A stretch of DNA of 64,000 nucleotides from an uncultured Ignavibacteriaceae bacterium (GTDB taxonomy: Bacteria > Bacteroidota > Ignavibacteria > UBA10030). Under the pieces are notes generated by a model. It was not told where the DNA came from and searched no databases. It worked only from the letters and a program-made list of their open reading frames with translations. The stretch covers positions 314 through 64,313 of the forward strand of contig CAZOMY010000006.1 in NCBI GenBank assembly GCA_964581115.1. Direction: 5' to 3'. Positions 1 to 43,158 of the stretch are shown here, one piece after another; positions within the stretch are counted from its first letter, which is position 1, and every line of letters starts with the position of its first letter. The translations under genes and the position numbers were made by a program.

Positions 1-179
1 AATGGCCATTCCACTTGGAATCCGGATCGCCCATTAGCAAACTGAATCATTGGACGGAATACCCATAGAAAAAGGATCCTGCAGGCATTGACTCGAATCC
101 GACATTTGTGTTCATTATTATCGATAAAGTAAACGTTAAAATCACGTTGAAAGACTGCTAGATCGAATTGAGGCAAGAC

Positions 180-1442
180 ATGATCTCTAAGACACCATCA
201 CTGGGACGCTTTTCGCTAGGAATCGGCGATCGCTTCGGAATGGAAGCACCCGCACAGCTTCGCGCACTGCAGAAGGCGCTTGGTCAAGGGGTCGAGGTCA
301 CTCCGGTCTGGAACAAGTCGAACCGTGAGCACACGATCATCGGTACCGAACCGTCGACGGTACGTGCCGCGGCCGACGATGCCGTCAAGTCAGCAGGATG
401 GAAACTGCCTCACTTCGTCGATGCCGACCATATCGGGCTCAAAACGGTCGACCGCTTCATGGCGGCCAGCGATTTCTTTACCATCGATGTCGCCGAAGCC
501 ATCGGAACGCCCGCTCAAGATGCGGCGGTCGACCAGTGGGTCGACATGATCCGTCCGACGCTGAAGCAGGCATCGCATCCCGATCTCAACGGTGACCTTG
601 ATATTACGCCCGAGCAGCTCCGGACGTTCGGAAAGAAATACTCCGCCGCCATCAAGGAGGCGGGTGCCATCTATCGCTACATCCTCAAGGCCAAAGGGGC
701 GACGCCCTTCATCACGGAGGTCTCGGTTGATGAGGCGAACGACCCGCAGCGGCCGTACGAGCTCTATCTGTTCCTGGCCGGGTTGGCGCAAGAAGGGGTC
801 CGCGTCAACACCGTGGCGCCGAAGTTCACGGGTCAGTTCCTGAAAGGCATTGACTACGTCGGCAATATTGCCGCGTTCACAAAGGAGTTCAAGAACGACC
901 TGGCCGTCATTGCCGTGGCGGTCGAGCAGTTCGGCCTTCCGGCAGACCTGAAGCTCAGCGTTCATTCCGGCAGCGACAAGTTCTCCTTGTACCCGATCAT
1001 GGCACAGCTTGTTCGAAGATCGGGAGGTGGTCTGCATCTGAAGACGGCGGGCACGACCTGGCTTGAAGAGGTCATCGGTCTGGCAAGAAGCCCCAAAGGG
1101 CTCGACATCGCCAAACGTATCTACCGTGGCGCGTTCGACAGGTATGACGAACTGCAGAAGCCATACGCGACGGTCATCGACATCGACCGGGCCAAGTTGC
1201 CATCTCCTGCGACGGTTGACGGATGGACATCATCTGAGTATGTGTCGGCCCTCGAGCATGACCAAAAGAACCCGAAATACAGCATCCATGTCCGACAGCT
1301 CGTTCATATCGCCTTTCGCATCGCGGCGGAGATGGGGGACGAGTACCGTCAGGCCCTCCGCGATCACCGCGCCGTCATTGAAGAGGGCGTCGCAAAGAAC
1401 CTGTACGACCGCCATGTACGTCCGCTGTTCATCGAACGATGA
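180..1442 (+). CDS. Putative tagaturonate/fructuronate epimerase-like TIM-barrel sugar-acid epimerase (UxaE-family-like)
   Basis: ORF 168-1442. ATG at 180 is preceded by GAGG 6 nt upstream (the track start at 168 is a TTG). 420 aa, no signal peptide. The N-terminal FSLGIGDRFG motif and protein size resemble Thermotoga-type UxaE. First gene of a block with exuT, uxaC and kduI. The family call is from memory of motifs only; the CDS itself is solid. Confidence 0.45.
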   Translation: MISKTPSLGRFSLGIGDRFGMEAPAQLRALQKALGQGVEVTPVWNKSNREHTIIGTEPSTVRAAADDAVKSAGWKLPHFVDADHIGLKTVDRFMAASDFFTIDVAEAIGTPAQDAAVDQWVDMIRPTLKQASHPDLNGDLDITPEQLRTFGKKYSAAIKEAGAIYRYILKAKGATPFITEVSVDEANDPQRPYELYLFLAGLAQEGVRVNTVAPKFTGQFLKGIDYVGNIAAFTKEFKNDLAVIAVAVEQFGLPADLKLSVHSGSDKFSLYPIMAQLVRRSGGGLHLKTAGTTWLEEVIGLARSPKGLDIAKRIYRGAFDRYDELQKPYATVIDIDRAKLPSPATVDGWTSSEYVSALEHDQKNPKYSIHVRQLVHIAFRIAAEMGDEYRQALRDHRAVIEEGVAKNLYDRHVRPLFIER

Positions 1443-1649
1443 CCTGTCGTCGCGTCGAATACCGATCATGTACACTCACTGTCGTCGTTCCAGCGCCCGG
1501 CACCACGTCGGGCGTTGGGCTTTGAACGCTGCTGTCTCCTCATGACCGGACCTCGCATGTCCCGCACGGTCGCCGTTCAGGATCTTGCGCTCGTCCTGAG
1601 GCCATTCGCGTCTTCGTCCTCCATGATCAATGGTCGACGGCTGTGCGTG

Positions 1650-2531
1650 ATGACAACTGTCGTTCTCACGACATGGATACTCGGCTCCGGATGTGCCGGA
1701 GCCGGAGCGACCCATGACGTGCCCGCCGTCACTGACGTGCGATTCGTAGAGCCCCGTGAGGACCTGGCGTGGGAGAATGACCGTATCGCGTTCCGTGTCT
1801 ACGGACCGGCGCTGGCGGCCGAAGTGAGCAACGGCATCGATGTTTGGTCGAAGCGCGTCTCGTACCCCGTGATCGAGAAATGGTATGCCGGCGACGCGGC
1901 GACGGGACCGGCCAAGCGCTCCTACCATGTCGATCACGGCGAAGGGGCCGATTTCTTCTCGGTCGGCCGAACGTTGGGGTGCGGAGGTTCATCCATCCGC
2001 GACGGGGACTCGCTGATCCAGCCTGGCGTCTTTGCGTCGTACCGCATCATGTCGACGGGGCCGAAGCTCGCTGAGTTCGAGTTGACCTATCCGCCCGTCA
2101 TGTTCCGTGGAAGAGCCGTTCGGGAAAGCCGCCGCGTGGCATTACCGGCTGGCGATCATCTTAATCGGATCGACGTGACATACTCCGTCGAAGGCGATCC
2201 CATCGATGTTCCGTTCGCCATTGGACTGGTGAAGCGCAAAGGCGTCCTCGTCACGCGCAATCCGGCGGACCATTCCATCAGTATCTGGGGACCGATGAAC
2301 GACGATCCGGTCAATGGCGAGTTGGGGATGGGGGCGGTGCTTCCGGGGTCGGCCTTTCGCAAGATCAGCGAAGATGCGACGCATGTGTTGTTGCACGGTG
2401 AGATCAGGTCGGGAGTACCTGTGACCTACTATGCCGGAGCCGGCTGGACAAGAAACGGTCGGATCTCAGTCAAAGCTGATTGGGAATCGATCCTTCGAAG
2501 GACATCAGAGTCTTTCGAATCGCACCCCTAG
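1650..2531 (+). CDS. DUF4861-family lipoprotein (pectin/hexuronate locus-associated)
   Basis: ORF 1515-2531. Internal ATG at 1650 gives MTTVVLTTWILGSGCAGAG, a lipoprotein signal with lipobox Cys. Composition and length are typical of DUF4861 proteins found next to kduI/kduD/uxa genes in Bacteroidota. Confidence 0.55.
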   Translation: MTTVVLTTWILGSGCAGAGATHDVPAVTDVRFVEPREDLAWENDRIAFRVYGPALAAEVSNGIDVWSKRVSYPVIEKWYAGDAATGPAKRSYHVDHGEGADFFSVGRTLGCGGSSIRDGDSLIQPGVFASYRIMSTGPKLAEFELTYPPVMFRGRAVRESRRVALPAGDHLNRIDVTYSVEGDPIDVPFAIGLVKRKGVLVTRNPADHSISIWGPMNDDPVNGELGMGAVLPGSAFRKISEDATHVLLHGEIRSGVPVTYYAGAGWTRNGRISVKADWESILRRTSESFESHP

Positions 2532-2706
2532 GGATTCCGAAAGCCGAATAAGATCTGTGCTTGAGACACGCCAATGTTTCATTGCTCGGCCTGGCCTCAG
2601 CTGAAATCTACTTGCTTCTGAGCCAAAAAGGCCGAAGATTAGGCCTACGTTATCGTTTAAGTAAGAAGTCAATTGTGAAGTCAGATGTTATCGAAAGGAT
2701 GCCCCA

Positions 2707-3981
2707 ATGGAGACCACTGCTCCAAAGATCGGCCGATACCGATGGGTCATCGTCTCACTCCTCTTCTTCGCCACCACCATCAACTATATCGACCGACAGG
2801 TCCTCGGCATCCTCGCGCCGGTCCTCCAAAAGGAGATCGGGTGGAGTGAGATCGAGTACGGGTATATCGTAACGGCATTCCAGCTTGCGTATGCCATAGG
2901 GCTGTTGTTCGCCGGGCGATTGATCGACCGCATTGGCACGAAACTCGGCTTCGCGATCGCTATCGTGGTGTGGAGCGTCGCCGCCATGGGTCACGCGCTG
3001 GCCAAGACGGTGATCGGATTCGGGGCGGCGCGCTTCGCGCTCGGCGTGGGCGAGGCGGCGAACTTCCCGGCGGCGATCAAGGCGACGGCGGAGTGGTTCC
3101 CCAAGAAGGAGCGCGCGTTGGCGACCGGCATCTTCAATTCCGGCGCGAATGTCGGCGCCGTCTTCGCGCCGTTGGTGGTGCCCTGGTTGACGATCGAGTA
3201 CGGCTGGCAGATGGCCTTCATCGTGACCGGTGCGCTCGGTTTCATCTGGCTTGTCTTCTGGTGGCTCGAGTACGAAAGGCCTGAAGTGAGCAAGAAGCTG
3301 GGCCAGCCGGAACTTGAGTACATTCTGAGCGATCCCCCCGAGCCGAGCGTCGCCCAGATCCCCTGGAGGTCGCTCCTTGGCTATCGCCAGACGTGGGCGT
3401 TCATCCTCGGCAAGTTCCTTACCGATCCTATCTGGTGGTTCTATCTCTACTGGCTTCCGAAGTTCCTTAACACGAAATACGACCTCAACATCGCCCAGCT
3501 CGGCCTGCCTCTCATCGTCATATACATGATGACGACGGTCGGCAGCATCGGTGGAGGATGGCTTTCGTCTCGGTTCATTTCGAGCGGGATGGCCATCAAC
3601 AAGGCGCGCAAGCTCGTGATGCTGATCTGTGCGTTGTGCATCGTTCCCATCATGGGTGCGGCGGAGGTTGGCCTGTGGGTCGCCGTTGGACTCATTGCCG
3701 TCGCCGCAGCGGCACACCAGGGCTGGTCGGCGAACATCTTCACGACGGCCTCCGACATGTTCCCGAAGAACGCCGTCGGCTCGGTGGTCGGACTTGGCGG
3801 AATGGCGGGAGCGGTCGGCGGCATGATCCTCGCCACGACGGCCGGCTACATCCTCGAGTTCACCGGCAGTTATTTCATCCTGTTCATCATCTCCGGCTCG
3901 GCGTACCTTCTTGCGCTGGCCATCTTCCATTGGCTTGTGCCCCGCATCGAACCGGTCACGATCACGATTACAGCATCCTGA
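2707..3981 (+). CDS. exuT: MFS transporter, hexuronate transporter ExuT-like (ACS family)
   Basis: 424 aa with about 12 TM segments. The N-terminal motif YRWVIVSLLFFATTINYIDRQVLGILAP and GEAANFPAAIKATAEWFPKKERALATG are characteristic of ExuT / hexuronate and anion:cation symporters. AT-richer promoter region upstream (2532-2706). Confidence 0.8.
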   Translation: METTAPKIGRYRWVIVSLLFFATTINYIDRQVLGILAPVLQKEIGWSEIEYGYIVTAFQLAYAIGLLFAGRLIDRIGTKLGFAIAIVVWSVAAMGHALAKTVIGFGAARFALGVGEAANFPAAIKATAEWFPKKERALATGIFNSGANVGAVFAPLVVPWLTIEYGWQMAFIVTGALGFIWLVFWWLEYERPEVSKKLGQPELEYILSDPPEPSVAQIPWRSLLGYRQTWAFILGKFLTDPIWWFYLYWLPKFLNTKYDLNIAQLGLPLIVIYMMTTVGSIGGGWLSSRFISSGMAINKARKLVMLICALCIVPIMGAAEVGLWVAVGLIAVAAAAHQGWSANIFTTASDMFPKNAVGSVVGLGGMAGAVGGMILATTAGYILEFTGSYFILFIISGSAYLLALAIFHWLVPRIEPVTITITAS

Positions 3982-3990
3982 GGCGATCTC

Positions 3991-4824
3991 ATGACGCTCA
4001 AAGAGTTGTCTGCATCGTATGACCTCTCGGGCATGGCGGCCTTCGTCACGGGAGGCACGGGCGTTCTGTGCAGCGAGATCGCGGTGGCGATGGGGGGATG
4101 CGGCGCGTCGGTGGCCTTGCTGGCCCGCGACCTGAAGAAGGCCGAGCCCGTGGCCGAGCGCGTCCGGATGGCCGGCGGCAAAGCCCTGATCGTTCAAGGA
4201 GACGTGACCGATCCGGCTCAGGTGAAGGAGGCGGTCGACGAAGTCCTCTCGGCGTGGGGAAGGATCGATGCGCTCGTAAACGGGGCTGGCGGGAACGATC
4301 CGAAGGCGACGACAAATCCGTCGCAATCGTTCTTCGATCTGATGCCCGAGGCCATCCGTGGCGTGTTCGACCTCAATATCATGGGGACGATCATTCCGTC
4401 GCAGGTCGTCGGTAAGCACATGGCTTCGCGAAAGCAAGGGATCATTCTCAACGTCTCGTCGATGAGCGCTTTCAGTCCGCTGACGCGGGTCATGGCCTAT
4501 TCCGCGGCCAAGGCCGGGGTCAACAACTTCACGGAGTGGCTGGCGGTGCACATGGCGCAGGAGTACTCGCCGGCCATCCGCGTCAACGCCATCGCCCCCG
4601 GGTTCTTCCTGACCGACCAGAACCGATTCCTCCTGACGGACAAGGAATCCGGCAAGCTGACGGAGCGCGGCCGGAAGATCCTCGATCATACGCCCATGAA
4701 ACGCTTCGGCGAGCCGGCGGACCTGCTCGGTGCATCGCTGTGGCTGCTGTCGCCGCTGTCAAACTTCGTCACGGGCGTCACGGTGCCGGTGGATGGCGGC
4801 TTCGCGGCGTACAGTGGGGTCTGA
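3991..4824 (+). CDS. SDR-family oxidoreductase, UxuB-type (putative D-mannonate/fructuronate oxidoreductase); KduD not excluded
   Basis: 277 aa. Rossmann motif TGGTGVLCSEIA and the YSAAK catalytic motif (MAYSAAKAGV). The GGNDPKATT insertion is typical of Bacteroidota UxuB-type SDRs. Lies 10 nt after exuT. Confidence 0.7.
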   Translation: MTLKELSASYDLSGMAAFVTGGTGVLCSEIAVAMGGCGASVALLARDLKKAEPVAERVRMAGGKALIVQGDVTDPAQVKEAVDEVLSAWGRIDALVNGAGGNDPKATTNPSQSFFDLMPEAIRGVFDLNIMGTIIPSQVVGKHMASRKQGIILNVSSMSAFSPLTRVMAYSAAKAGVNNFTEWLAVHMAQEYSPAIRVNAIAPGFFLTDQNRFLLTDKESGKLTERGRKILDHTPMKRFGEPADLLGASLWLLSPLSNFVTGVTVPVDGGFAAYSGV

Positions 4825-4965
4825 TGATCGTTTCACGCGGCGGCCGCTGTGGAAGCGGCGATCGCGGCGGAAGCAATAGGATCCTTTTCAATTTTCTCCT
4901 CATCATAGACGTTGCGTTCGCGGCACCCGCCGCGTGCGCTGCGCGAAACAACTAACTGAAAGAAC

Positions 4966-6417
4966 ATGGCTTCGGCTGATATCGGTCTCGTCGGTCTCGC
5001 CGTGATGGGCGAGAACCTCGTCCTCAACATGGAAAGTAAAGGGTTCACCGTGGCCGTCTACAACCGGACGGTTGAAAAGGTGGACCAATTCATGAATGGC
5101 CGCGGCAAGGGAAAGAGATTCGTCGCCGCCCACTCGATCGCGGAGCTGGTGGCGGCGCTCAAGCGACCCCGCAAGGTGATGCTGATGGTCAAAGCGGGCA
5201 AGCCGGTCGATGAGTTTATCGAGTTGCTCCGGCCGCATCTGGAGCCGGGTGATATCATCATCGACGGTGGCAACAGCCACTTCCCCGACACGATCCGCCG
5301 GACGAAGGCGTTGGAACAGGGCGGTCTTCTCTACATCGGCACCGGAGTCTCCGGTGGCGAAGAGGGGGCGCTCCTCGGTCCCTCGATCATGCCGGGCGGT
5401 TCGGAGGCGGCCTGGCCGCACGTGAAGCCCATCTTCCAGGCGATCGCCGCGAAGGTGGCCGACGGTACACCGTGTTGCGACTGGGTTGGAGCCGACGGCG
5501 CCGGTCATTTCGTCAAGATGGTCCACAACGGCATCGAGTACGGCGATATGCAGCTCATCGCCGAATCGTATTTCATGATGAAGGAACTGCTCGGACTCTC
5601 GGCCGACGAGATGCACGCTGTTTTCGCCGAGTGGAACAAGGGGGAGCTCGACAGTTACCTGATCGAGATCACGCGCGACATCCTCGGCACGAAGGACGCC
5701 GACGGTTCGCCGCTCGTGGAGAGGATCCTCGACACGGCCGGACAGAAGGGGACCGGGAAGTGGACAGGTGTCGCGGCGCTCGACCTCGGCATTCCGCTGA
5801 CGCTGATCGGCGAGGCGGTCTTCGCCCGCTGCTTGTCGGCGATGAAAGAAGAGCGGGTGAAGGCTTCGAAGATCCTTTCCGGACCCGCGCCGCAGTTCAA
5901 GGGCGACCGGAAAGCTTTTGTGGCCGACCTCGAGAAGGCGCTCTACGCGTCAAAGCTCGTTTCGTACGCGCAGGGCTATATGCTGATGCAAGAGGCCGCC
6001 AAGGAGCATGGATGGAAGCTCAACTACGGCGGTATCGCCCTCCTCTGGCGCGGCGGATGCATCATCCGGTCGGCCTTCCTGGGCAAGATCAAGGAGGCGT
6101 TCGATCGGCAGTCCGACCTGAGCAATCTTCTGTTCGACCCGTTCTTCCAGAAGAAAATGGCCGACGCGCAGGCTGCGTGGCGGCGCGTCGTGTCGACGGC
6201 CGTGGAGAACGGATTGTGGATCCCGGCGCACGCAACGGCGCTCGCGTTCTACGACGGGCTCCGCAATGGACGGTTGCCGGCGAACCTGTTGCAGGCCCAG
6301 CGCGACTACTTTGGAGCGCATCAGTACGAGCGCACCGACGAGCCGCGCGGGAAGTTCTTCCACACGAACTGGACCGGCCGCGGCGGCGCGACGGCGTCGT
6401 CAACGTATACTGTTTAG
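4966..6417 (+). CDS. gnd: 6-phosphogluconate dehydrogenase, decarboxylating
   Basis: 483 aa. N-terminal ADIGLVGLAVMGENLVLNMESKGFTVAVYNRT is the canonical Gnd NADP-binding region, with full-length similarity to Gnd. Confidence 0.95.
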   Translation: MASADIGLVGLAVMGENLVLNMESKGFTVAVYNRTVEKVDQFMNGRGKGKRFVAAHSIAELVAALKRPRKVMLMVKAGKPVDEFIELLRPHLEPGDIIIDGGNSHFPDTIRRTKALEQGGLLYIGTGVSGGEEGALLGPSIMPGGSEAAWPHVKPIFQAIAAKVADGTPCCDWVGADGAGHFVKMVHNGIEYGDMQLIAESYFMMKELLGLSADEMHAVFAEWNKGELDSYLIEITRDILGTKDADGSPLVERILDTAGQKGTGKWTGVAALDLGIPLTLIGEAVFARCLSAMKEERVKASKILSGPAPQFKGDRKAFVADLEKALYASKLVSYAQGYMLMQEAAKEHGWKLNYGGIALLWRGGCIIRSAFLGKIKEAFDRQSDLSNLLFDPFFQKKMADAQAAWRRVVSTAVENGLWIPAHATALAFYDGLRNGRLPANLLQAQRDYFGAHQYERTDEPRGKFFHTNWTGRGGATASSTYTV

Positions 6418-6538
6418 AAGCGAACTCACGCAATGTCGCTAAGGCGCAAGGACAATGTCTCTTTCCGCCTGGAACTCTTCGTTGCGCCATTGCGTCGTGG
6501 CGTGATGTCTTCGTCCTAAGGATGCGGCAGGACCTCTT

Positions 6539-7690
6539 GTGAAGCTAGTCATCGTTGCTGACCAGAACATTCCATTCGTCGCGGAGATGTACGCCGGAGT
6601 GGCTGACCTGCGCTCCGTCGACGGCCATGCGATCACGCCGGCGGCTGTGCGGGATGCGGACATTCTCCTCGTCCGATCGGTGACGCCGGTGACGCGAGAG
6701 TTGCTCGACGGAAGTCGCGTTCGGTTTGTGGGAACGGCGACGATCGGCCACGATCATGTCGACCGGGTCTATCTGGACGAGCGCGGCATCGCCTTTGTCA
6801 GCGCTCCCGGCAGCAACGCCAACTCGGTCTCGGAATATGTGACCGCGGCCCTCCTCGAAGCGGCCGATCGGTTGGGTTGGACGCTGAGAGGCAAGACGAT
6901 CGGGGTCATCGGCGTCGGAAACGTCGGCCGTCGCGTGGTGCAGAAGGCCGAGGCCCTTGGACTGAAGGTCCTGAAGAATGACCCTCCCGTACAACGAGCG
7001 ACGGGAGACGCGTCGTACGTCACGCTCGACGAAGCTCTGACCGCCGATATCGTCACGTGCCACGTGCCGCTCACGCGCACGGGTGAGGACGCGACGCATC
7101 ATCTGATCAACGCCGAGCGCATGTTGCGAATGCGGCCGGGTGCGCTTCTGCTGAACTCATCGCGGGGAGCTGTCGTCGACGGCTCGGCACTCAAGGCGAA
7201 TATTCGCTCGGGACGCTTGTCGGCGATCCTGGATGTCTGGGAAGGGGAACCGAAGATCGACGCAGAACTCCTCGAAGAGGTGCTGGTCGGAACGCCTCAC
7301 ATCGCGGGTTATTCAACGGAGGGCAAGACGAACGGCTCGATCATGCTCTACGAGGCCGTGTGCCGGTATCTGGGCATTTCGGCGACGTGGAGTGTCGACG
7401 GGAAACTGCCGCCCCCCGAACATGCGTCGATCGTCCCGGAGGGGAGCGACGACGAATCCCGACTGCGTTCGGTGATCCGTAAGGCGTATCCGATCATACG
7501 AGACGACGCCCGGCTTCGCGAGATGCTGACGATGGATCCCGACAAGCGCGCCGAACATTTCAAGCGGCTCCGTTCGCACTATCCGGTCCGCCGCGAATTC
7601 CCAGCTGTTGAAGTCATCATCGGACACAACCGTCCGCCTCTTTCCGGCGTGCTGCACAGACTGGGTTTCAAGGTCGTGAGCGTCCCGTGA
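6539..7690 (+). CDS. pdxB: Erythronate-4-phosphate dehydrogenase
   Basis: 383 aa, GTG start. Aligns along its length with E. coli PdxB (VRSVTPV, FVGTATIGHDHVD, GVIGVGNVGRR, LDVWEGEP, HIAGYS). It includes the PdxB-specific C-terminal dimerisation domain (FKRLRSHYPVRREF). Confidence 0.85.
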   Translation: MKLVIVADQNIPFVAEMYAGVADLRSVDGHAITPAAVRDADILLVRSVTPVTRELLDGSRVRFVGTATIGHDHVDRVYLDERGIAFVSAPGSNANSVSEYVTAALLEAADRLGWTLRGKTIGVIGVGNVGRRVVQKAEALGLKVLKNDPPVQRATGDASYVTLDEALTADIVTCHVPLTRTGEDATHHLINAERMLRMRPGALLLNSSRGAVVDGSALKANIRSGRLSAILDVWEGEPKIDAELLEEVLVGTPHIAGYSTEGKTNGSIMLYEAVCRYLGISATWSVDGKLPPPEHASIVPEGSDDESRLRSVIRKAYPIIRDDARLREMLTMDPDKRAEHFKRLRSHYPVRREFPAVEVIIGHNRPPLSGVLHRLGFKVVSVP

Positions 7691-7694
7691 GCTC

Positions 7695-9020
7695 ATGCCG
7701 TCGAATGATCTCTCAACTTCATTCATTTTCTTTGCGTTCTTTGCGGCAATCACCTTCCCCATGATCGGCACCGGCTCACCCGATAACCTCCTCACGGACG
7801 ACCAGGTCCGCGACATCTGCGCCTCGTTCGTCGATGCGCACCAGCTGGCCGGCAAACGCGTGCTCGGGATCATTCCCGATCATACGCGATCGGCGCCGAT
7901 CGATCTGATGTTCCGAACGCTCTACGACCTCCTCGGCCGCGGCAACGGTGCATTCGACCTCCTCATTGCGCTCGGCACGCATCCGCCCATGTCAGAAAGC
8001 GCGATCGACAAGCGGCTCGGTCTTGCTCCGGGAGAGCGGGCATCGAAGTTCGGCCGAACGAAGGTCGTCAATCACGCATGGGACGACCCTGCTCAGCTGC
8101 GGAGGATCGGGTCCTTCAGCGGCGATCGGATCGCGGAGTTGAGCGAAGGTCTTCTGCGCGAATCGGTCGACATCACGATCAACAAGCTGGTCTTCGACTA
8201 TGACGTCGTGCTCATCATCGGCCCGACGTTTCCGCACGAGGTCGTCGGCTTCTCGGGAGGCAACAAGTATCTCTTCCCCGGCATATCAGGCCGGGAGATC
8301 ATCGACCTGTTCCACTGGCTCGGAGCGCTCATCACGAACCCGCGCATCATCGGCAAGAAGTGGACGCCCGTGCGGGCCGTGGTCGACGCATCAGCGGCGC
8401 TCCTCTCGGTTCCGCGGCTCTGCCTCAGCATGGTCGTGGACCGGCACGAACTGGCGGGTCTCTACGGGGGAACGCCGGAGGAAGCGTGGTCGGCCGCCGC
8501 CGACCTCTCCGATCGTATCCACATCGTCTATAAGGACCGTGCGTACTCGAGCGTTCTATCGTGCGCTCCGACGATGTACGACGAATTGTGGGTGGGGGGC
8601 AAATGCGCCTACAAGCTGGAGCCGGTGGTCGCCGACGGTGGCGAGCTGATCATCTATGCCCCGCACATCGACGAGATCTCGGTCACGCACGGCACGCTCA
8701 TTCGAAAGATCGGCTACCACGTGCGCGACTATTTCACGGCGCAGGCCGACCGTTTCGCCGGCATCCCGAAAGGCGTGCTGGCCCATTCCACGCATGTCAA
8801 GGGCATCGGATCCTACCGCGACGGACACGAAGAGCCTCGCATCCGCGTGACGCTTGCCACCGGCATCCCGGAGGAGGTCTGTCGAGCCATCAATCTTGGC
8901 TATCGCGACCCGCAATCGATCGACCCGATCGCGTGGATGGCGAAGGAAGAGCAGGGTTTCCTGCACGTGCCGAAGGCCGGAGAGATCCTCTACCGTCTGA
9001 CGAACGACCCATTTCACTGA
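7695..9020 (+). CDS. LarA-family protein (nickel-pincer-dependent lactate racemase-like 2-hydroxyacid racemase/epimerase; DUF2088)
   Basis: 441 aa. LarA motifs are conserved: PDHTRS (SDHTRP in LarA), ALGTHPPMSESA (ATGFHRPSTHEE), and GFSGGNKYLFPGISG (GFSGGRKSVLPGIAS, containing the NPN-tethering Lys). The N-terminal 22 aa are low-complexity, so the true start may be ATG at 7761 (MIGTGSP). Confidence 0.75.
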   Translation: MPSNDLSTSFIFFAFFAAITFPMIGTGSPDNLLTDDQVRDICASFVDAHQLAGKRVLGIIPDHTRSAPIDLMFRTLYDLLGRGNGAFDLLIALGTHPPMSESAIDKRLGLAPGERASKFGRTKVVNHAWDDPAQLRRIGSFSGDRIAELSEGLLRESVDITINKLVFDYDVVLIIGPTFPHEVVGFSGGNKYLFPGISGREIIDLFHWLGALITNPRIIGKKWTPVRAVVDASAALLSVPRLCLSMVVDRHELAGLYGGTPEEAWSAAADLSDRIHIVYKDRAYSSVLSCAPTMYDELWVGGKCAYKLEPVVADGGELIIYAPHIDEISVTHGTLIRKIGYHVRDYFTAQADRFAGIPKGVLAHSTHVKGIGSYRDGHEEPRIRVTLATGIPEEVCRAINLGYRDPQSIDPIAWMAKEEQGFLHVPKAGEILYRLTNDPFH

Positions 9021-9032
9021 TCAGGAGTCACC

Positions 9033-10115
9033 ATGGCGTCAACGTTTTCCATCCCCACAACCGGAGAGCTCGACCTCGTCAGTCTCGGCGCGCTCGTTCA
9101 TCGGCTTGACCCCGGCGTCATCCCGTTCCGGAAGGCGACGCACTGTGCCATTCATGTCAGCGGCGGCGAGTTCAACGTGGCTGCCAACCTGGCCGACTGC
9201 TTCCGGTTGAAGACGGGGATCGTAACGGCGATGGTAGACTATCCGATCGGCGACCTCATTGCGGAGCGTGTGCGGGCGATGGGTGTCCGACCGTTCTACA
9301 AGCGGTACGTGCACAATGGCGTGAACGGACCGAATATGGCAACAGTCTACAGCGATCAGGGATTCGGCGTGCGGGCGCCGGTCGTCTTCTACAATCGTTC
9401 AAACGAAGCCGCCGCACTGCTGAAGCCGGGCGACATCGACTGGAAAGAGGTCTTTGCGGGTGGCGTGCGGTGGTTCCACAGCGGCGGCATCTTTGCGGCC
9501 CTCTCGGCGACGACGGGCGAACTGATCGTGGAAGGGATGAAGGCAGCCAAGGCGGCGGGGGCCGTGACGAGTTTCGACCTGAATTTTCGAGCAAAGCTTT
9601 GGAACATTTGGGGAGGCGAAAAGAAGGCCGTGGAGGTCGTTGCCCGCATCGTAGAGCACGTCGACGTTCTCGTCGGCAACGAAGAGGACCTGCAGAAGGG
9701 CCTCGGCATCCCCGGCCCTGAGGTGGCCGCGAAGTCTGAACTCGATCCCTCGGCCTTCCTGGCGATGATGGACTCGGTCGTTAAGAAGTATCCGAAGGTC
9801 AAAGCGGTCGCAACGACCCTCCGCGAGGTCCACAGCACGAATCGCCATCGCTGGAGCGCCGTGGCGTGGGTCGAAGGGAAGGCCTATCGGGCACCGACCT
9901 GCGATCTGGACGTCATCGATCGCGTGGGCGGCGGTGACGGCTTCGCGGCGGGATTCATCTACGGCTTGCTCGCTGGCGAGTCGCCCGAGACGGCCATCAA
10001 GCTGGGCTGGGCACACGGCGCGCTCCTGACGACGTTCCCCGGCGACACGACGATGGCGACCGTCGAGCAGGTCAAGGCGTTCGCGGCGGGCGGCTCGGCG
10101 AGAATTCAGCGGTGA
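9033..10115 (+). CDS. PfkB-family sugar kinase, 2-dehydro-3-deoxygluconokinase (KdgK)-like
   Basis: 360 aa. Ribokinase/PfkB fold with the C-terminal signature DRVGGGDGFAAGFIYGLL. Lies between the larA-like gene and kduI. Substrate not determinable from sequence. Confidence 0.7.
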   Translation: MASTFSIPTTGELDLVSLGALVHRLDPGVIPFRKATHCAIHVSGGEFNVAANLADCFRLKTGIVTAMVDYPIGDLIAERVRAMGVRPFYKRYVHNGVNGPNMATVYSDQGFGVRAPVVFYNRSNEAAALLKPGDIDWKEVFAGGVRWFHSGGIFAALSATTGELIVEGMKAAKAAGAVTSFDLNFRAKLWNIWGGEKKAVEVVARIVEHVDVLVGNEEDLQKGLGIPGPEVAAKSELDPSAFLAMMDSVVKKYPKVKAVATTLREVHSTNRHRWSAVAWVEGKAYRAPTCDLDVIDRVGGGDGFAAGFIYGLLAGESPETAIKLGWAHGALLTTFPGDTTMATVEQVKAFAAGGSARIQR

Positions 10116-10221
10116 GAATTTTGCACCGCAATGACGCAGCGGCGCGAAGGCAAATGATCAAATCACGTTGCGCCTTCGCGTCTCTGCGGTGTATATCTTC
10201 TCTTTCGATCGAGGTGCTTTC

Positions 10222-11055
10222 ATGGAAGTCCGCTTTCTCCCCGACCCCGCGACCACGCGTCGCATGACCACCCAGGAGCTGCGCGAGCGGTTCGTGTTCG
10301 ACCGTATCGCCGTCCCGGGCGAGATCCGCACGGTCTACGTCGACGCTGACCGGTCGATCATCGGCTTTGCGATCCCGACCACGGCGCCCCTCGATCTCAC
10401 GGCCAGCCGAACGGAGATGGCGGCCGATCATTTTCTCGAGCGCCGTGAGATGGGCATCGTCAACGTCGGGGGTGCCGGCGTTGTGATCGCCGACGGGAAG
10501 GAATTCGTCCTTGCAAAACGCGACATGGTCTACCTTGGTCGCGGCACGAAGGCGGTGTCGTTCAAGAGCGCCAACGGCTCGAATCCGGCGGCGTTCTTTT
10601 TCGTCTCGTATCCCGCACATCGGGAGTATCCATCGCGACTGATGACGTTCGCCGAATCCGCCGCCACGCCGCTCGGCACGCCGAGAGACGCAAACAAGCG
10701 GACCATTCACAAGTACATTCACGAAGCCGGCATTCCCAGTTGCCAATTGGTGATGGGGATGACGGTGCTGGAAGAGGGGAGTGTCTGGAACACGATGCCG
10801 GCGCATACGCATCTGCGCAGGTCGGAGGTCTACATGTACTTCGACGTCCCTGAAGACGGGATGGTCGTTCACTTGATGGGCGAGCCGACGGAGACGCGTC
10901 ACGTCATCCTCCATAACCGCCAGGCCGTGATCTCGCCTGTCTGGTCCATTCATGCGGGCGCCGCGACGCAGGCCTATTCCTTTATCTGGGCCATGGGCGG
11001 AGAGAACCAGGCGTTCGATGATATGGATAAAGTTGCCGTGAGAGATCTGAAGTAG
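10222..11055 (+). CDS. kduI: 5-dehydro-4-deoxy-D-glucuronate isomerase
   Basis: ORF 10168-11055; ATG at 10222 (MEVRFLP). Strong full-length similarity to E. coli KduI (FLERRELGVINIGGAG, NLWNTMPCHTHERRMEVY, NEQAVISPSWSIHSG, ENQVFDDMDHVAVKDL). Confidence 0.9.
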   Translation: MEVRFLPDPATTRRMTTQELRERFVFDRIAVPGEIRTVYVDADRSIIGFAIPTTAPLDLTASRTEMAADHFLERREMGIVNVGGAGVVIADGKEFVLAKRDMVYLGRGTKAVSFKSANGSNPAAFFFVSYPAHREYPSRLMTFAESAATPLGTPRDANKRTIHKYIHEAGIPSCQLVMGMTVLEEGSVWNTMPAHTHLRRSEVYMYFDVPEDGMVVHLMGEPTETRHVILHNRQAVISPVWSIHAGAATQAYSFIWAMGGENQAFDDMDKVAVRDLK

Positions 11056-11239
11056 TAAGCAGTAAGCAGGTACAGTCAGGTTGTAGGCAGGCTGAGGTCC
11101 AATGACAAAGAACAAATGATCTTTCTTCTCGGGCTTCTGTCTGACCGTACCTGATGGTTTCTGAATACTGCCTGCTCCCATTCGCCTTCACGAGATTTCT
11201 CTTGTCTATTCAGCGCACCTGACAGCCCCGGGAGCCACC

Positions 11240-12658
11240 ATGGCCACCAAGAAACTCACCCTGCACCGCGACCGCTACCTCGACGCCAACCCGGCCGTGC
11301 GCAAGATCGCGCGCGAACTCTATCATTCCGTCAAGAAACTGCCGATCATCAGCCCGCATGGGCACGTCGACCCGGCCCTCTTCTCAAAGAACAAGCCTTT
11401 CCCGGATCCGGCGCAACTGTTCATCGTGCCGGACCATTATATCTTCCGGATGCTCCACGCGCAGGGGATCCCTCTCGAGCGCATGGGCGTGCCGACTCGC
11501 GATGGCTCGCCGACGGAGACCGACGGCCGCAAGATCTGGCAACTCTTCGCTGAGAACTATCACCTGTTCCGGGGTACGCCGTCGGGGGCATGGCTCGATG
11601 CCGAACTGGTCGATGTGCTTGGAGTGAAGGAGAAGCTGAACGGCAAGAACGCCCAGAGGATCTACGACTTCATCCAAGCAAAGCTCGAGACCAAGGAGTT
11701 CCGTCCGCGCGCCCTGTTCCAGCGTTTCAATATTGAGGTGCTGGCAACGACCGACGCCGCGACGGATACGCTTGACCATCACATAGCGATGCGTGCATCC
11801 GGTTGGAAGGGGCGCGTCATTCCCACTTTCCGACCAGACGGCCTGACGAACCTGCTCGATGCGGCTTGGAGCGCGAACGTAAAGCGCTTGGGCGAGCTGG
11901 TCGGGCATGAGATCACGACCATGCGTGCGTTCATCGCTGCCCTCGAGTCGCGCCGCGTCTTCTTCAAGTCGATGGGGGCCGTGGCTACCGATCATGGAGT
12001 GCAGAGTCCATACGTGCATCAGCTGTCGGAGCGGGAGGCCGACGACATTCTCGGAAGGGCGTTGAAAGGACTGGCCACCGCTCAGGATGCGGCCCAATTC
12101 ACGGCGCACATGCTGATGGAGATGGCACGCATGAGCAGCGAGGACGGCCTCGTCATGCAGCTCCATGCCGGCGCTCTGCGCAATCACCATACGGGCATCT
12201 TCCGGCGGTTCGGTCCCGACAAGGGCTTCGACATTCCAGCTCCGACGGAGTACGTGTCGAACCTTCGCGAGCTGACGGAGAAGTTCGGCAATCACCCGAG
12301 CTTGAAGATTATCCTCTTCACCCTCGACGAGACGACGTATGCGCGCGAACTCGCCCCGCTCGCGGGGGTCTATCCGGCCCTCTTGGTCGGTCCGGCCTGG
12401 TGGTTTCACGACAGCATCGAGGGGATGGTCCGCTACCGCGCGAACATCATGGAGACGGCCGGTCTCTATAACACCGCCGGATTCAATGACGACACGCGGG
12501 CGTTCTTGTCGATCCCGGCCCGGCACGACCTCTCCCGTCGCATGGATGCGAATTGGGTTGCTTCCCTCATGGCCCGGCATCTCGTGAGCAAGTCCGAAGG
12601 CCTCGAGATGATGTATGAGCTGGCGAACGGATTGGTGAAGAAGGCGTACGGATTATAG
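11240..12658 (+). CDS. uxaC: Glucuronate isomerase
   Basis: 472 aa. The N-terminal LPIISPHGHVDPALF and overall length match UxaC. A 184-bp AT-richer leader with repeats lies upstream. Confidence 0.95.
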   Translation: MATKKLTLHRDRYLDANPAVRKIARELYHSVKKLPIISPHGHVDPALFSKNKPFPDPAQLFIVPDHYIFRMLHAQGIPLERMGVPTRDGSPTETDGRKIWQLFAENYHLFRGTPSGAWLDAELVDVLGVKEKLNGKNAQRIYDFIQAKLETKEFRPRALFQRFNIEVLATTDAATDTLDHHIAMRASGWKGRVIPTFRPDGLTNLLDAAWSANVKRLGELVGHEITTMRAFIAALESRRVFFKSMGAVATDHGVQSPYVHQLSEREADDILGRALKGLATAQDAAQFTAHMLMEMARMSSEDGLVMQLHAGALRNHHTGIFRRFGPDKGFDIPAPTEYVSNLRELTEKFGNHPSLKIILFTLDETTYARELAPLAGVYPALLVGPAWWFHDSIEGMVRYRANIMETAGLYNTAGFNDDTRAFLSIPARHDLSRRMDANWVASLMARHLVSKSEGLEMMYELANGLVKKAYGL

Positions 12659-12719
12659 AAAGGGACGACGTCACGAGGGAGGAATGGAGAGATGGAGTGA
12701 CGGAGTTCACGTGAAGAGA

Positions 12720-12750
12720 CCAGCGCCTGTTGGCTTTCGACGGGCGCTGG
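12720..12750 (+). terminator. Putative intrinsic terminator after uxaC
   Basis: GC hairpin CCAGCGCC-(15 nt)-GGCGCTGG about 60 nt after the uxaC stop, followed by a short T-containing tract. Weak U-run. Confidence 0.3.
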
Positions 12751-12831
12751 CGTTCAATGCATGGGCGAAGGGCGCATCTGCAGTGAAAATGCCGCATATT
12801 CTCGGCATCACTCCGAACGCATGAGGATCCC

Positions 12832-13917
12832 ATGCAGATCGGTATCGTAGGCCTTCCGTTCTCCGGCAAATCAACGCTCTTCCAGACGCTCACCCGAACG
12901 CATCTCGATCCGTCCGCCCTCGCGAAAGCAGAGGCCCATCACGCGGTCGTCCGCGTCCCGGACGAGCGGATCGCCAGACTCTCGGCCCTGTTCAAACCCA
13001 AGAGTACCGTCCTTGCGGCGATCGAGTTCGTCGATGTCGTAGGCCTCAAGAAAGGGGAGACTGGTTCGACGCAGTTCACGACGAACTTCCTCGGCAACGT
13101 CAAGAACAACGATGCGCTCATCCAGGTCGTCCGGACCTTTGCCGAGCCCTCCGTCCCTCATCCGGATGGTTCGATCGATCCGCTCCGCGACGTCGCTACG
13201 TTCCACACCGAATTCTTGCTGGCCGACATGGCCATTCTCGAGAATCGGGTGGAGCGTATCAAGAAGCAGCTGGGAAAGCATCAAGACGACCATCTCAAGC
13301 GTGAGTTGCCCCTGCTCGAAAAGTGCCGTCAGCTGCTTGAACAGGAGCGTCCCCTGCGTGACGTCGAATGGACGAAAGAGGAGCTCCACCTTCTGAAGAC
13401 CTATCAGTTGTTGACGCTGAAGCCGATGCTGATCGCCCTGAATGGCGACGAGTCACAGCTCAAAGGCATGGACGCCACGGTCAAGGCCGTTGCGGCGAAG
13501 TTCGCCGGCCGCCACACACGCGTCCTGGCCTTCTTCGGCAAGGTCGAACAGGAGATGTCCGAACTGGACGAAGCCGATGCCTCGGCGTTCATGCAGGAGT
13601 ATGGCATCTCGGAATCAGCCCTCACGGCCATCATTCGAGAATCGTACGACCTTCTCGGACTGCGCTCGTTCTTCACCGTCGGCGAGGATGAATGCAGGGC
13701 CTGGACGATCCGGGAGGGGATGACCGCGCAAGAAGCGGCGGGGGTGATCCATACCGACTTCTTCCAGAAGTTCATCCGCGCCGAAGTGGTCCACTACGAT
13801 CATTTCATCGCCGCGGACGGCTCATTCGCCAAGGCCAAGGAGACCGGTCATTGGCGGCTTGAAGGGAAGGAATACGTGGTGAAAGACGGGGACATTCTGT
13901 CGATCAGGCATAACTGA
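12832..13917 (+). CDS. ychF: Ribosome-binding ATPase YchF (Obg-family GTPase/ATPase with C-terminal TGS domain)
   Basis: 361 aa. P-loop GIVGLPFSGKSTLF. C-terminal TGS-like segment GKEYVVKDGDILSIRHN. Confidence 0.9.
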   Translation: MQIGIVGLPFSGKSTLFQTLTRTHLDPSALAKAEAHHAVVRVPDERIARLSALFKPKSTVLAAIEFVDVVGLKKGETGSTQFTTNFLGNVKNNDALIQVVRTFAEPSVPHPDGSIDPLRDVATFHTEFLLADMAILENRVERIKKQLGKHQDDHLKRELPLLEKCRQLLEQERPLRDVEWTKEELHLLKTYQLLTLKPMLIALNGDESQLKGMDATVKAVAAKFAGRHTRVLAFFGKVEQEMSELDEADASAFMQEYGISESALTAIIRESYDLLGLRSFFTVGEDECRAWTIREGMTAQEAAGVIHTDFFQKFIRAEVVHYDHFIAADGSFAKAKETGHWRLEGKEYVVKDGDILSIRHN

Positions 13918-14038
13918 GGACAGAGGACAAAGGCACTGATTGCTGATCACTAACCATTGGCTCCTGATGGCCGCCCAGTGATCATTGGTCACTGACCAGT
14001 TCTGGGACTGCCGTCTTCGCAACTTCAGAAGGAACCGT

Positions 14039-21744: not shown

Positions 21745-23877
21745 ATGTCCGATCCTGTCGGCAGGGGCCCGGAACGTCTGGACCCCATCATTGCGCCGCG
21801 CTCGGTCGCGGTCGTCGGCACAACGCGCGTTGCCGGTACCGTTCCGTACGATCTCTTCGCCAATCTGTTGCGCGACCGCTTTGAGGGGACGCTGTACCCG
21901 GTGAGCCCCAAGGAACGCTCCATCGCGGGCGTCAAGGCCTACAAGTACGTGCTGGATATTCCCGATCCCGTCGATCTGGCCGTCATTGTCTTTCCGAGCA
22001 GCGTCGTCAACCTGGCGCTCGAGCAGTGCGGGCAGAAGGGGATCAAAGGGGTCGTCATCATCAGCGCCGGGTTCAGGGAGGTCGGTCCCGCCGGCGCAAA
22101 GCGCGAAGAGGAGATCAAGCAGATCGCGGCCAAGTACGGGATCTCATTCATCGGCCCCAACTGCCTCGGCCTCATCAACACCGATCCGTGTGTCAGATTG
22201 AATGCGTCGTTCGCGCGACGCATGCCGCGCGAAGGGTCGATCGGCTTCTTGTCGCAGAGTGGGGCGCTCTGCACGGCGGTGCTCGACTATGCCCACGCCA
22301 AGAACATCGGCTTCTCGAAGTTCATCTCGTTCGGGAACAAGGCCGACGTCAGCGACATCGACCTGATGATGTACCTGAAAGACGACCCGGCGACGAAGGT
22401 CATCCTGATGTATCTGGAGGAAATGACCGCCGGTGCGCGGTTCGTCGAAGCGGCCCGCCGCGTCATCCATGAAGCGGGCAAGCCAGTCCTGGTCTTGAAA
22501 TCAGGCCGGACGACGGAAGGTGCGTCGGCGGCGGCGTCGCACACCGGTTCGCTGGCCGCCAGCGACGAGATCGTCGACGCGGCGCTGATGCAGGCCGGCG
22601 TCATCCGATGCACGACGATCGAGGAGATGTTCAACAACGCCATTGCGCTCGCCTACCAACCCCTTCCGAAGGGGCGTCGGGTAGCGATCATAACGAATGC
22701 CGGCGGACCGGGGGTGCTGACGACCGATGCGGCGATCCACGAAGGACTGCAGCTGGCCGGATTTTCGGAGGCCACGCGCGAGATCTTCAAGCGCTCGCTG
22801 CCGGTGACGGCCAACATGAAGAACCCGGTCGACGTCATTGGCGATGCGCGCGCCGACCGCTATCGCGTGGCGCTCGGGGCCGCCCTCGCCGACCAGAACG
22901 TCGACGGTGCTCTCGTCATCCTTACGCCGCAATCGATGACCGACATCGATACGATCGCGACCGAGGTCTGCAATGTCGCGGGGGGCTTCGACAAGCCGAC
23001 CTACGCGTCGTTCATGGGCGAGACCGACGTCGCCTCGGGCATCGCGATCCTCCAGAGTCGCAACATCCCTCACTACATCCTGCCGGAATCGATGTGCCGC
23101 GCGTTCGCGCGGGCTGACGACTTCCGCTACGAGCGCGACCATCCGCACGCGCCGGTACCGGTCTTTGACGACGTTGACACGGCGAAGGCGAATGCCATTC
23201 TGGAAGCGGCGAGGTCCGCCGGCAGAAACTACCTGCCGCAATCGGAGGCGTTCGAGGTGCTCGCGGCCTACGGATTGCCGACGCTCGCCGGCCGGATCGC
23301 GACGTCGGCCAACGAAGCGGCACAGATCGCGCTCGAGGTCGGCTTTCCCATCGCCCTCAAGGTCGAATCGGACGACATCATCCACAAATGGGATGTCGGC
23401 GGCGTACTGCTAAATGTCGCCTCGGCGGACGAAGCGGCGAAGGGCTACGAGGCCGTGGTCGCGAACGCCGCCGCCGCGATGCCGAAGGCCCGCCTGAAGG
23501 GCGTCTACGTCCAGCGGATGTCGGGCACGGGCGAAGAGGTCATCCTCGGCGTCAAGCGCGACCCGGCGTTCGGTCCGGTGGTCCTGTTCGGCCTCGGAGG
23601 CATCTTCGTCGAGGTCTTCCGCGACGTCAGCTTCCGCATCGCGCCGCTTCCGCCGGATGTTGTGCGCGATATGATGCAGCGCATCAAGGCGTATCGACTG
23701 CTCACCGGGGCTCGCGGACGTCCCGTGCGCGACGTCGATGCTGTGGCTCAGTGCCTCCAGCGCCTGTCGCAGCTGGCGGTTGAATGTCCGCTGATCCGCG
23801 AACTCGATATCAATCCGCTCATCGTCGGGAACGCCGGCCAGGGCTGCTCCGTGGCCGACGCCCGGATCCTACTCTGA
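21745..23877 (+). CDS. ADP-forming acyl-CoA synthetase (NDP-forming; fused alpha/beta: CoA-binding, succinyl-CoA-ligase-like and ATP-grasp domains)
   Basis: 710 aa. N-terminal CoA-binding Rossmann [19 protein letters not shown]. Central ligase-CoA domain [23 protein letters not shown] with the phospho-His region. C-terminal ATP-grasp ([21 protein letters not shown]). No GNAT domain, so it is not Pat-type. Confidence 0.75.
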
Positions 23878-23896
23878 CCCATCGGAGGTTCCAACC

Positions 23897-24703
23897 ATGC
23901 GCATCATCATTCACGACAGCTACGATGCCCTCAGCAAATGGACCGCGCACTACATCGCGTCCAAGATCAACGCGTTCAAACCGACAAAGGACCGGCCCTA
24001 CGTGCTCGGCCTCCCGACGGGCTCATCCCCCATCGGAACGTATCAGAACCTCGTCAGCCTGCACCAACAGGGAAAGGTCTCGTTCAAGAACGTCATCACC
24101 TTCAACATGGACGAGTATGTCGGCCTGCCCGAGGATCATCCCGAGAGCTATCACTACTTCATGTGGCACCATCTGTTCAGCCACATCGATATCCCGCACG
24201 AAAACGTCAACATCCTCAACGGCAACGCGAAGGACCTCGAGAAGGAGTGCTCGGACTACGAGGAGCGCATCCGCAAGACCGGCGGCATCCATCTCTTCCT
24301 CGGCGGCATCGGGCCGGACGGACACATCGCCTTCAACGAACCGGGCTCGTCATTGTCGTCTCGCACGCGTATCAAGACGCTGACGATGGATACCCGCATC
24401 GCCAACTCGCGCTTCTTCGGCAACGACCCGAACAAGGTCCCCAAGACGGCCCTGACGGTCGGCGTAGGGACGGTCATGGACGCACAGGAGGTCGTCATCA
24501 TCGTGTCGGGCCACTCAAAGGCCCGCGCCTTGCAGAAGGTGGTGGAAGAAGGAGTGAATCACATGTGGACGGTGTCTCAGCTTCAGCTGCACCGCCACGG
24601 CATCATCGTCTGCGACGAGGCGTCGACCTACGAGCTCAAGGTCGGCACGGTCAAGTACTTCAAGGATATCGAAGGCGATAACTTGAGGATCGCCGACCTG
24701 TAG
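23897..24703 (+). CDS. nagB: Glucosamine-6-phosphate deaminase
   Basis: 268 aa. Canonical NagB motifs [18 protein letters not shown] and [21 protein letters not shown]. Confidence 0.9.
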
Positions 24704-24715
24704 AGGAGCATCTCC

Positions 24716-43154: not shown

Positions 43155-43158
43155 CGCT

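Follow-up and report, generated by a model that had tools for sequence, protein, structure and literature searches.

The 64,000-nucleotide stretch of DNA considered here, which is referred to throughout as the window, comes from an uncultured Ignavibacteriaceae bacterium (GCA_964581115.1, contig CAZOMY010000006.1, positions 314 to 64,313). Near its beginning there is a cluster of genes, all on the + strand and separated by short gaps, for UxaE, a DUF4861 protein, a major facilitator superfamily (MFS) transporter, a UxuB-type short-chain dehydrogenase/reductase (SDR), Gnd, PdxB, a homologue of the lactate racemase LarA, a PfkB kinase, KduI, and UxaC (Table 1). The gene for the LarA homologue is the subject of this analysis, and its sequence and setting make it a fairly likely candidate for an epimerase of the GntE type (group 19), dependent on the nickel-pincer nucleotide (NPN), that would convert D-mannonate to D-gluconate and in this way feed Gnd.

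Table 1. Genes of the cluster, with coordinates in the window and the matches on which the assignments are based
Gene product	Coordinates	Strand	Evidence
UxaE, tagaturonate/fructuronate epimerase	168..1442	+	Pfam PF16257, E = 4.9e-54
DUF4861 / BT3233-like polysaccharide-utilisation protein	1515..2531	+	Pfam DUF4861, E = 5.7e-59; NCBIfam BT_3233_fam, 241 bits (under the cutoff of 320)
MFS transporter, presumed hexuronate importer (substrate from context only)	2707..3981	+	Pfam MFS_1, E = 2.3e-65
UxuB-type SDR, fructuronate reductase / D-mannonate oxidoreductase	3991..4824	+	NCBIfam PRK08277, 361 bits (cutoff 281)
Gnd, decarboxylating NADP-dependent 6-phosphogluconate dehydrogenase	4966..6417	+	TIGR00873, 765 bits (cutoff 427)
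PdxB-family 4-phosphoerythronate dehydrogenase	6539..7690	+	PRK00257, 429 bits (cutoff 434); DUF3410 (PdxB-specific); PDB 2O4C, E = 4e-89
LarA homologue, GntE clade group 19, predicted NPN-dependent D-mannonate/D-gluconate 2-epimerase	7695..9020, likely start 7761	+	
PfkB kinase, diverged KdgK paralogue, predicted hexonate (gluconate) 6-kinase	9033..10115	+	Pfam PfkB
KduI, 5-dehydro-4-deoxy-D-glucuronate isomerase	10222..11055 (ORF opens 10168)	+	PRK00924, 396 bits (cutoff 250), from ORF residue 19
UxaC, glucuronate/galacturonate isomerase	11240..12658	+	NCBIfam PRK02925, 533 bits (cutoff 387)

An earlier note on this DNA had placed the gene between pdxB and a PfkB kinase gene, downstream of the UxuB-type SDR and gnd, and the Pfam and NCBIfam matches agree with this arrangement. 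The same note had reported that larB, larC, and larE are not nearby and that uxuA and kdgA are not in the window, and this is indeed the case, as there is no larB, larC, larE, uxuA, eda/kdgA, kduD, or GntK-type kinase gene among the annotated sizeable open reading frames (ORFs) of the 64 kb. A six-frame tblastn search of the window with the UxuA, Eda, KduD, GntK, FGGY, PFK-like, and HAD-like proteins of related loci also found no UxuA, Eda, KduD, GntK, or FGGY gene. A scan of positions 1-14000 for promoters and terminators matched less often than in shuffled controls, found no terminator between genes on the + strand, and is uninformative on operon boundaries. On contig L083, which is from a JGI metagenome, KduI is annotated at 277 amino acids.

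The ORF at 7695-9020, as given in the earlier note, is real, with a translation of 441 amino acids, but its start appears to be over-extended. Homologues are 415-430 amino acids in length and, among those in the databases, the alignment to the 441-amino acid product is restricted to residues 23-441, while a relative in GCA_025490975.1 that is 88% identical has been annotated at 419 amino acids. This would suggest that the true start is probably Met23, at nt 7761, giving a product of 419 amino acids, and that the first 22 codons (MPSNDLSTSFIFFAFFAAITFP; 7695-7760) are probably not translated. These codons are hydrophobic, are matched by no homologue, and begin 5 nt past the pdxB stop. Contig L083, where the PfkB and PdxB proteins are 100% identical to those of the window, has the 441-amino acid form annotated, and an exact-sequence look-up of the 419-amino acid product gave no match. 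The nearest relatives are uncultured metagenome-assembled genomes (GCA_025490975.1) and JGI metagenome contigs.

By its sequence, the protein is a member of the LarA superfamily of NPN-dependent 2-hydroxyacid racemases and epimerases (DUF2088/COG3875). There is a match to Pfam Lar_N (PF09861; E = 1.5e-19) and a full-length phmmer match to PDB 4NAR (E = 4e-65), whereas the structures of lactate and malate racemases are matched at only about 1e-7 to 1e-4. The motifs of LarA homologues are found as D-HTR, GTH, PHEVVGFSGGNK, a His at K+16, and ELWVGGK, and their residues are invariant in a 16-sequence alignment of the family. Using the numbering of the 419-amino acid product, the NPN-binding residues R43, K169, and H185 correspond to LarA R75, K184 (the covalent tether), and H200 (the Ni ligand), and the catalytic residues D40, H74, H159, and K281 to LarA D72, H108, H174, and K298, all of them invariant in the same alignment. 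The catalytic and cofactor motifs are therefore intact, including the tether lysine, just as the earlier note had claimed. An AlphaFold model was made with the 16-sequence alignment as input; in a Foldseek search with this model 4NAR was the first match (5.5e-29) and all 17 significant matches were LarA-family structures.

Since the gene stands in a cluster for sugar acids, it might be there by chance and encode a lactate, malate, or other small 2-hydroxyacid racemase, which would share with it the LarA fold and those catalytic residues that all members of the superfamily have. Compared with LarA of Lactiplantibacillus plantarum (5HUQ), the window protein does have the same fold, the NPN-tether Lys, the Ni-ligand His, the pair of catalytic His residues, and the Asp, Arg, and Lys, but the phmmer match is only E = 2.7e-4, the pocket has E-V where lactate racemases have F-F, and the gene is without the context of a lar operon. 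The scores for the NCBIfam racemase models are all far under their cutoffs, at 57.7 bits against 460 for the lactate racemase LarA (NF033504), 75.7 against 500 for the malate racemase model NF052593, and 49.0 against 462 for a second malate racemase model, NF052595; for LarAH10 the score is 49 against 540. At the positions equivalent to LarA W358 and T359, where H or Q and K are diagnostic of malate racemase, the residues here are A and H. Together with the structure matches and the tree described below, which places the protein in the GntE clade, these scores rule out a lactate or malate racemase, and a small 2-hydroxyacid racemase of any kind is scarcely credible.

The earlier note had suggested a phylogeny against functionally assigned LarA homologues, and this places the protein in the GntE clade, in group 19, and not with the lactate or malate racemases. 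The group-labelled sequences and signature columns were taken from the supplement of PMC7583248 and used for blastp and a neighbour-joining tree, and by both the window protein falls inside group 19 of Desguin et al. ("G2E2"). Its identity is 57% with Plabr_2258 and 53-57% with the Nostoc, Roseiflexus, and Planctomycete members (54-56% for those of Nostoc and Roseiflexus), as compared with 45% for GntE1, 35% for GntE2, and 26-32% for group 18. Its 20-position signature, D R H H E V K H V W V G K G L A S T H K, is identical to that of Plabr_2258 at 19 of the 20 positions and to that of GntE1 at 16. The alignment recovers the published reference signatures, apart from a gap at the final position in the row for group 18. 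E, V, A, and H at the positions of LarA F175, F176, W358, and T359 have been reported as diagnostic of GntE (PMC11770544), and the window protein has E160 and V161, in PHEVVGFSGGNK, and A341 and H342, in LAHSTH.

The best NCBIfam match is to NF052594 (NPN_18_hexonate), the model for group 18, which is described as a "nickel-dependent putative hexonate epimerase". The published context of that sister group (PMC7583248, Table S1) includes an SDR (36%), 6-phosphogluconate dehydrogenase (32%), a ribokinase-family kinase (16%), MFS, UxaC, and KduI, which are the gene families of the window. Membership of group 18 is nevertheless ruled out, because the score is 173.9 bits against a cutoff of 500 and both the tree and the signature point to group 19. 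There is also GMANYNK in group 18 where the window protein has GFSGGNK.

GntE1 (LarAH19) of C. glutamicum, the only characterised member of group 19, has been shown to act as an NPN-dependent D-mannonate/D-gluconate 2-epimerase. It shares with the window protein the PHEVVGFSGGNKY, HWxGALIT, and AHSTH motifs. The window protein is, however, in a separate subclade with Planctomycete, Bacteroidota, Verrucomicrobiota, and other members; it has W-V-G-K before the catalytic Lys where GntE1 has W-T-A-K; and it has an SDR, Gnd, and a kinase as neighbours, while the published context of group 19 is LarB/LarE (33%) and LacI. The closest solved structure, 4NAR, is that of TM0442 (GntE2, LarAH20), the NPN-dependent D-gluconate/D-mannonate 2-epimerase of T. 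maritima (PMC7583248). A Gly stands before the catalytic Lys in both GntE2 and the window protein, but GntE2 is in group 20 and has E-S in the loop where the window protein has E-V.

The proposed shunt itself is not new. For T. maritima the route was proposed by Rodionova et al. in 2012, as cited in PMC7583248 and PMC6978723, the epimerase activity of GntE was demonstrated in 2020 (PMC7583248), and another GntE, LarAH15, was reported in 2024. The window gene would therefore join a route already proposed for Thermotoga, with which the cluster shares UxaE, an SDR fructuronate reductase, a LarA-type epimerase, a kinase, and Gnd. It differs in having as its kinase a PfkB derived from KdgK, where Thermotoga has an FGGY gluconokinase (COG1070, 86% association), and in having PdxB and KduI, neither of which belongs to the context published for group 20.

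Relatives of the gene were sought in the GTDB species representatives and found in at least 596 genomes. The best 80 loci, with proteins 54-67% identical to that of the window, were examined, and their neighbours counted in two ways, with tblastn and with a de novo clustering of the neighbouring ORFs that included a filter on GC content at third codon positions (GC3). Many phyla are represented, among them Bacteroidota, Myxococcota, Calditrichota, Fidelibacterota, Ignavibacteria, Acidobacteriota, KSB1, Armatimonadota, Verrucomicrobiota, Planctomycetota, Hydrogenedentota, and Elusimicrobia. In 47-50 of the 80 loci the gene immediately upstream of the LarA homologue encodes the SDR; Gnd is within 10 kb in 25-28, with UxaE nearby in 14 and UxaC in 10-11. 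In the 34 loci that have at least 5 kb on both sides, the SDR is present within 5 kb in 65% and Gnd in 32%. Loci L087, L088, and L091 are compact units of SDR, LarA homologue, Gnd, and PfkB, and in L090 the order is UxaC, UxaE, PfkB, LarA homologue, Gnd, with UxuA alongside. Locus L085 has the module together with a bona fide KduD, a KdgK-like kinase, and Eda.

These neighbours also bear on whether the protein could be an NPN epimerase of some other sugar acid, be it a hexonate isomer, a uronate, or an aldarate such as glucarate/mannarate. Desguin et al. themselves suggested, from the high Km of GntE1 and from differences in the sequence logo, that group 19 might naturally act on an aldaric acid or on an isomer of mannonate, and at positions 278 and 280 the window protein has V and G where GntE1 has T and A. 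On the other hand, the repeated association with gnd and with gluconokinases requires a product that can be converted to 6-phosphogluconate, and genes for glucarate or galactarate dehydratase are not recurrent among the neighbours in the related loci. A substrate of this sort is accordingly thought improbable.

Nor do larB, larC, and larE recur among the neighbours of the LarA homologue, out to 10 kb, in the 80 loci. If the genome as a whole were without larBCE, then the protein would have no working cofactor and would be a relic or have a function not dependent on NPN, in keeping with the absence of these genes from the 64 kb. Against this, no NPN-binding or catalytic residue varies between phyla, and identity within the family remains at 55-67% over very deep divergences, which points to strong purifying selection. 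The published contexts of groups 18 and 20 are likewise without lar accessory genes, yet GntE2 is NPN-dependent, and about 15% of genomes have larBCE without larA, so that larBCE is commonly unlinked. The loss of the cofactor is, on balance, most improbable.

The kinase next to the LarA gene differs between the loci. Kinases were counted in 88 non-redundant sequences, made up of the 80 loci, the loci from PfkB and PdxB look-ups, and the window, and four unrelated types adjoin the LarA gene, never together in one locus. The PfkB of the window type is found in 15 loci, a count that is favoured by the inclusion of loci fetched through the PfkB and PdxB look-ups. A protein like pyrophosphate (PPi)-dependent phosphofructokinase (PFK-like) is found downstream of the LarA homologue in 9 (L004, L009, L015, L017, L028, L041, L042, L057, L093), a GntK/IdnK-type gluconokinase (TIGR01313, 180 bits, cutoff 114) in 3, and an FGGY protein for which the best model is gluconokinase in another 3. 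The PFK-like protein (NCBIfam PRK14072, 378 bits) is 72-82% identical between phyla and is always accompanied by a HAD-family protein of 295 amino acids that has no NCBIfam match. In 6 loci GntK/IdnK-type or FGGY genes are within 6 kb of the LarA gene, and in Verrucomicrobia the kinase neighbour is the GntK/IdnK-type gluconokinase. Since two of the four kinase types belong to recognised gluconokinase families, gluconate or a close hexonate is the most economical substrate to assume for the step that they share.

The best PDB match of the window PfkB is 2AFB, the KdgK of T. maritima, at 163 bits, and its best NCBIfam models are those for 2-keto-3-deoxygluconate (KDG) kinase, although it falls far under their cutoffs (253 of 700, 127 of 440, and 78 of 400 bits). 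Its own family has more than 120 cluster representatives that are at least 81% identical, nearly all of 360 amino acids, across phyla, and in every sampled context the gene adjoins gnd or is near it. In locus L089 there is a group of Gnd, PfkB, and a hydrolase with no LarA gene within 8 kb, which fits a kinase making 6-phosphogluconate directly. Locus L085 has two PfkB genes that are 43% identical, where the copy of the window type abuts gnd and the other adjoins the LarA homologue; the latter scores much higher against every KDG-kinase reference, including 2AFB (239 as against 163 bits) and KDG_KDGal_kin (210 as against 125 bits). From this pattern it seems that the window PfkB is probably a hexonate (gluconate) 6-kinase derived from KdgK, of a subfamily that has gone unrecognised.

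In the pathway that these genes would make up, UxaC and UxaE would convert both glucuronate and galacturonate to fructuronate, which the UxuB-type SDR would reduce to D-mannonate. The LarA homologue would then invert C2 of D-mannonate to give D-gluconate, by way of a transient 2-keto intermediate, with the hydride held on the Lys-tethered NPN (proton-coupled hydride transfer) and the two His residues serving as acid and base. The gnd-linked PfkB would phosphorylate gluconate to 6-phosphogluconate, from which Gnd would form ribulose-5-phosphate and CO2. In this scheme we infer the substrate, the order of the steps, the specificity of the kinase, and that larBCE genes located elsewhere in the genome supply the NPN. 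The shunt from mannonate through gluconate and 6-phosphogluconate to ribulose-5-phosphate that the earlier note had put forward is in this way supported computationally, by the clade, the signature, and the conserved neighbours.

Several observations weigh against the pathway as set out. The AlphaFold model is confident for the N-terminal domain only, with residues 258-408 at a predicted local distance difference test (pLDDT) score below 50. For GntE1 the Km with D-mannonate is 120 mM, and the authors of that work question whether mannonate is the native substrate. The window kinase is of the KdgK family rather than a known gluconokinase family, and it adjoins KduI. The lar accessory genes are, as noted above, not within the 64 kb. 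Finally, extracts of L. suebicus phosphorylate mannonate and then epimerise 6-phosphomannonate, while expressing a homologue of TM0442.

The route of L. suebicus (Valk et al. 2020) has the same entry, through UxaC, UxaE, and UxuB, and the same exit, through 6-phosphogluconate and then Gnd, and overall it is redox-neutral from hexuronate to ribulose-5-phosphate, but in it the kinase precedes the epimerase, and no genes have been assigned. By analogy, the window PfkB might be a D-mannonate 6-kinase and the LarA homologue a 6-phosphomannonate/6-phosphogluconate 2-epimerase. In the L. suebicus extracts free mannonate was not epimerised, whereas mannonate with ATP was converted to 6-phosphomannonate and then to 6-phosphogluconate, and the TM0442 homologue is abundant in the proteome. 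The very poor Km of GntE1, of the same group, for free mannonate would also fit; KDG and mannonate have the same configuration at C4-C6, such that a KdgK-derived kinase could accept mannonate; and the genes for the LarA homologue and PfkB are separated by only 12 bp in the window. However, GntE1, GntE2, and LarAH15 all use the free acids, and the kinase of the Verrucomicrobia loci is of the GntK/IdnK type; E. coli GntK is reported not to use mannonate. The Gnd-PfkB pair of L089, with no LarA gene within 8 kb, suits a kinase that makes 6-phosphogluconate directly, and this pair and the GntK-type neighbours favour the epimerase acting first. Phosphorylation before epimerisation is therefore considered unlikely, and the epimerisation of free D-mannonate by a GntE-type enzyme is preferred.

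The earlier note had also taken the shunt to bypass UxuA and KdgA, and this part of its claim does not follow, as the two routes coexist in related loci. The absence of uxuA and kdgA from the window says little, because L090, with UxuA, and L085, with KduD and Eda, carry both routes. The LarA-dependent route is thus a parallel branch, and not necessarily a replacement of the classical one.

The gene immediately before that of the LarA homologue encodes PdxB in 8-9 of the 80 loci, from at least six phyla, and also in L085 and L093, the full set being L002, L014, L016, L041, L042, L055, L056, L057, L085, and L093. That this might be a dedicated paralogue was considered and deemed unlikely, because the identity of PdxB homologues falls quickly, to about 50%, and only one of three randomly sampled distant homologues sits in the module; the gene behaves like a vertically inherited housekeeping gene. 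Since 4-phosphoerythronate inhibits 6-phosphogluconate dehydrogenase (PMC6449344, PMC12445079), it may be speculated that PdxB could protect Gnd from this compound. In L093, at 7182-8986, a pair of genes for an AAA_21/SMC_N ATPase and a DUF4276 protein is inserted between PdxB and the LarA homologue, and this insertion resembles a small mobile or defence-type element.

A wider proposal draws several of these strands together. In this, the kinase slot would hold unrecognised hexonate kinases (PfkB, or PFK-like with HAD), group 19 would be the 6-phosphomannonate 2-epimerase of Valk et al., and PdxB and HAD would clear 4-phosphoerythronate and so guard Gnd, through which the whole carbon flow of the pathway would pass. 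Such a role for group 19 would explain the Km of GntE1 for free mannonate. As a combination, this is rather doubtful.

Elsewhere in the window there are two other groups of genes, both on the + strand. At 34865-55606 there are a GH3 protein, a LacI regulator, a CBM9 protein with a type IX secretion system (T9SS) tail, a TonB-dependent receptor (40491-43154), an ORF of 1132 amino acids without a Pfam match (43024-46422), a PorV-like protein, a GH94 phosphorylase, a GH2 protein, and two PF10091 'glucoamylase' proteins, one of them with a T9SS tail, followed by an ABC sugar transporter. This is a probable beta-glucan utilisation locus, for which the combination of GH94 and PF10091 may point to beta-1,2-glucan. 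The Por_Secre_tail (T9SS C-terminal sorting) domains and the PorV-like gene are at 38423-40384, 51327-52970, and 46438-47448, and they indicate an organism of the FCB group. At 21745-26701 there is an ADP-forming acyl-CoA synthetase-like protein (CoA_binding, Succ_CoA_lig, ATP-grasp_5), followed in the row by a protein of the Glucosamine_iso/6-phosphogluconolactonase family and a hexapeptide-repeat protein of 661 amino acids (DUF4954 and DUF6819).

Work on the route discussed here has to date been confined to Thermotoga, one Lactobacillus, Corynebacterium, and an oomycete. If the assignment of the LarA homologue is correct, a redox-neutral route from the uronic acids of pectin and hemicellulose to the pentose phosphate pathway would be widespread, given that at least 596 species have a relative of the gene and belong to phyla of soil and sediment, among them Bacteroidota, Verrucomicrobiota, Planctomycetota, Acidobacteriota, and Myxococcota. 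Two annotations would then need to be corrected, that of the LarA homologue as "lactate racemase" and that of the kinase as "2-dehydro-3-deoxygluconokinase". The compact operons of SDR, epimerase, Gnd, and kinase would be ready parts for the conversion of galacturonate to the pentose phosphate pathway that was highlighted by Valk et al. More interesting, but unproven, are the by-products of the analysis, which are the gnd-linked PfkB subfamily, the variant with the PFK-like and HAD proteins, and the recurrent PdxB. For the organisms that carry the gene, the supply of nickel and of NPN would be a hidden requirement for uronate catabolism.

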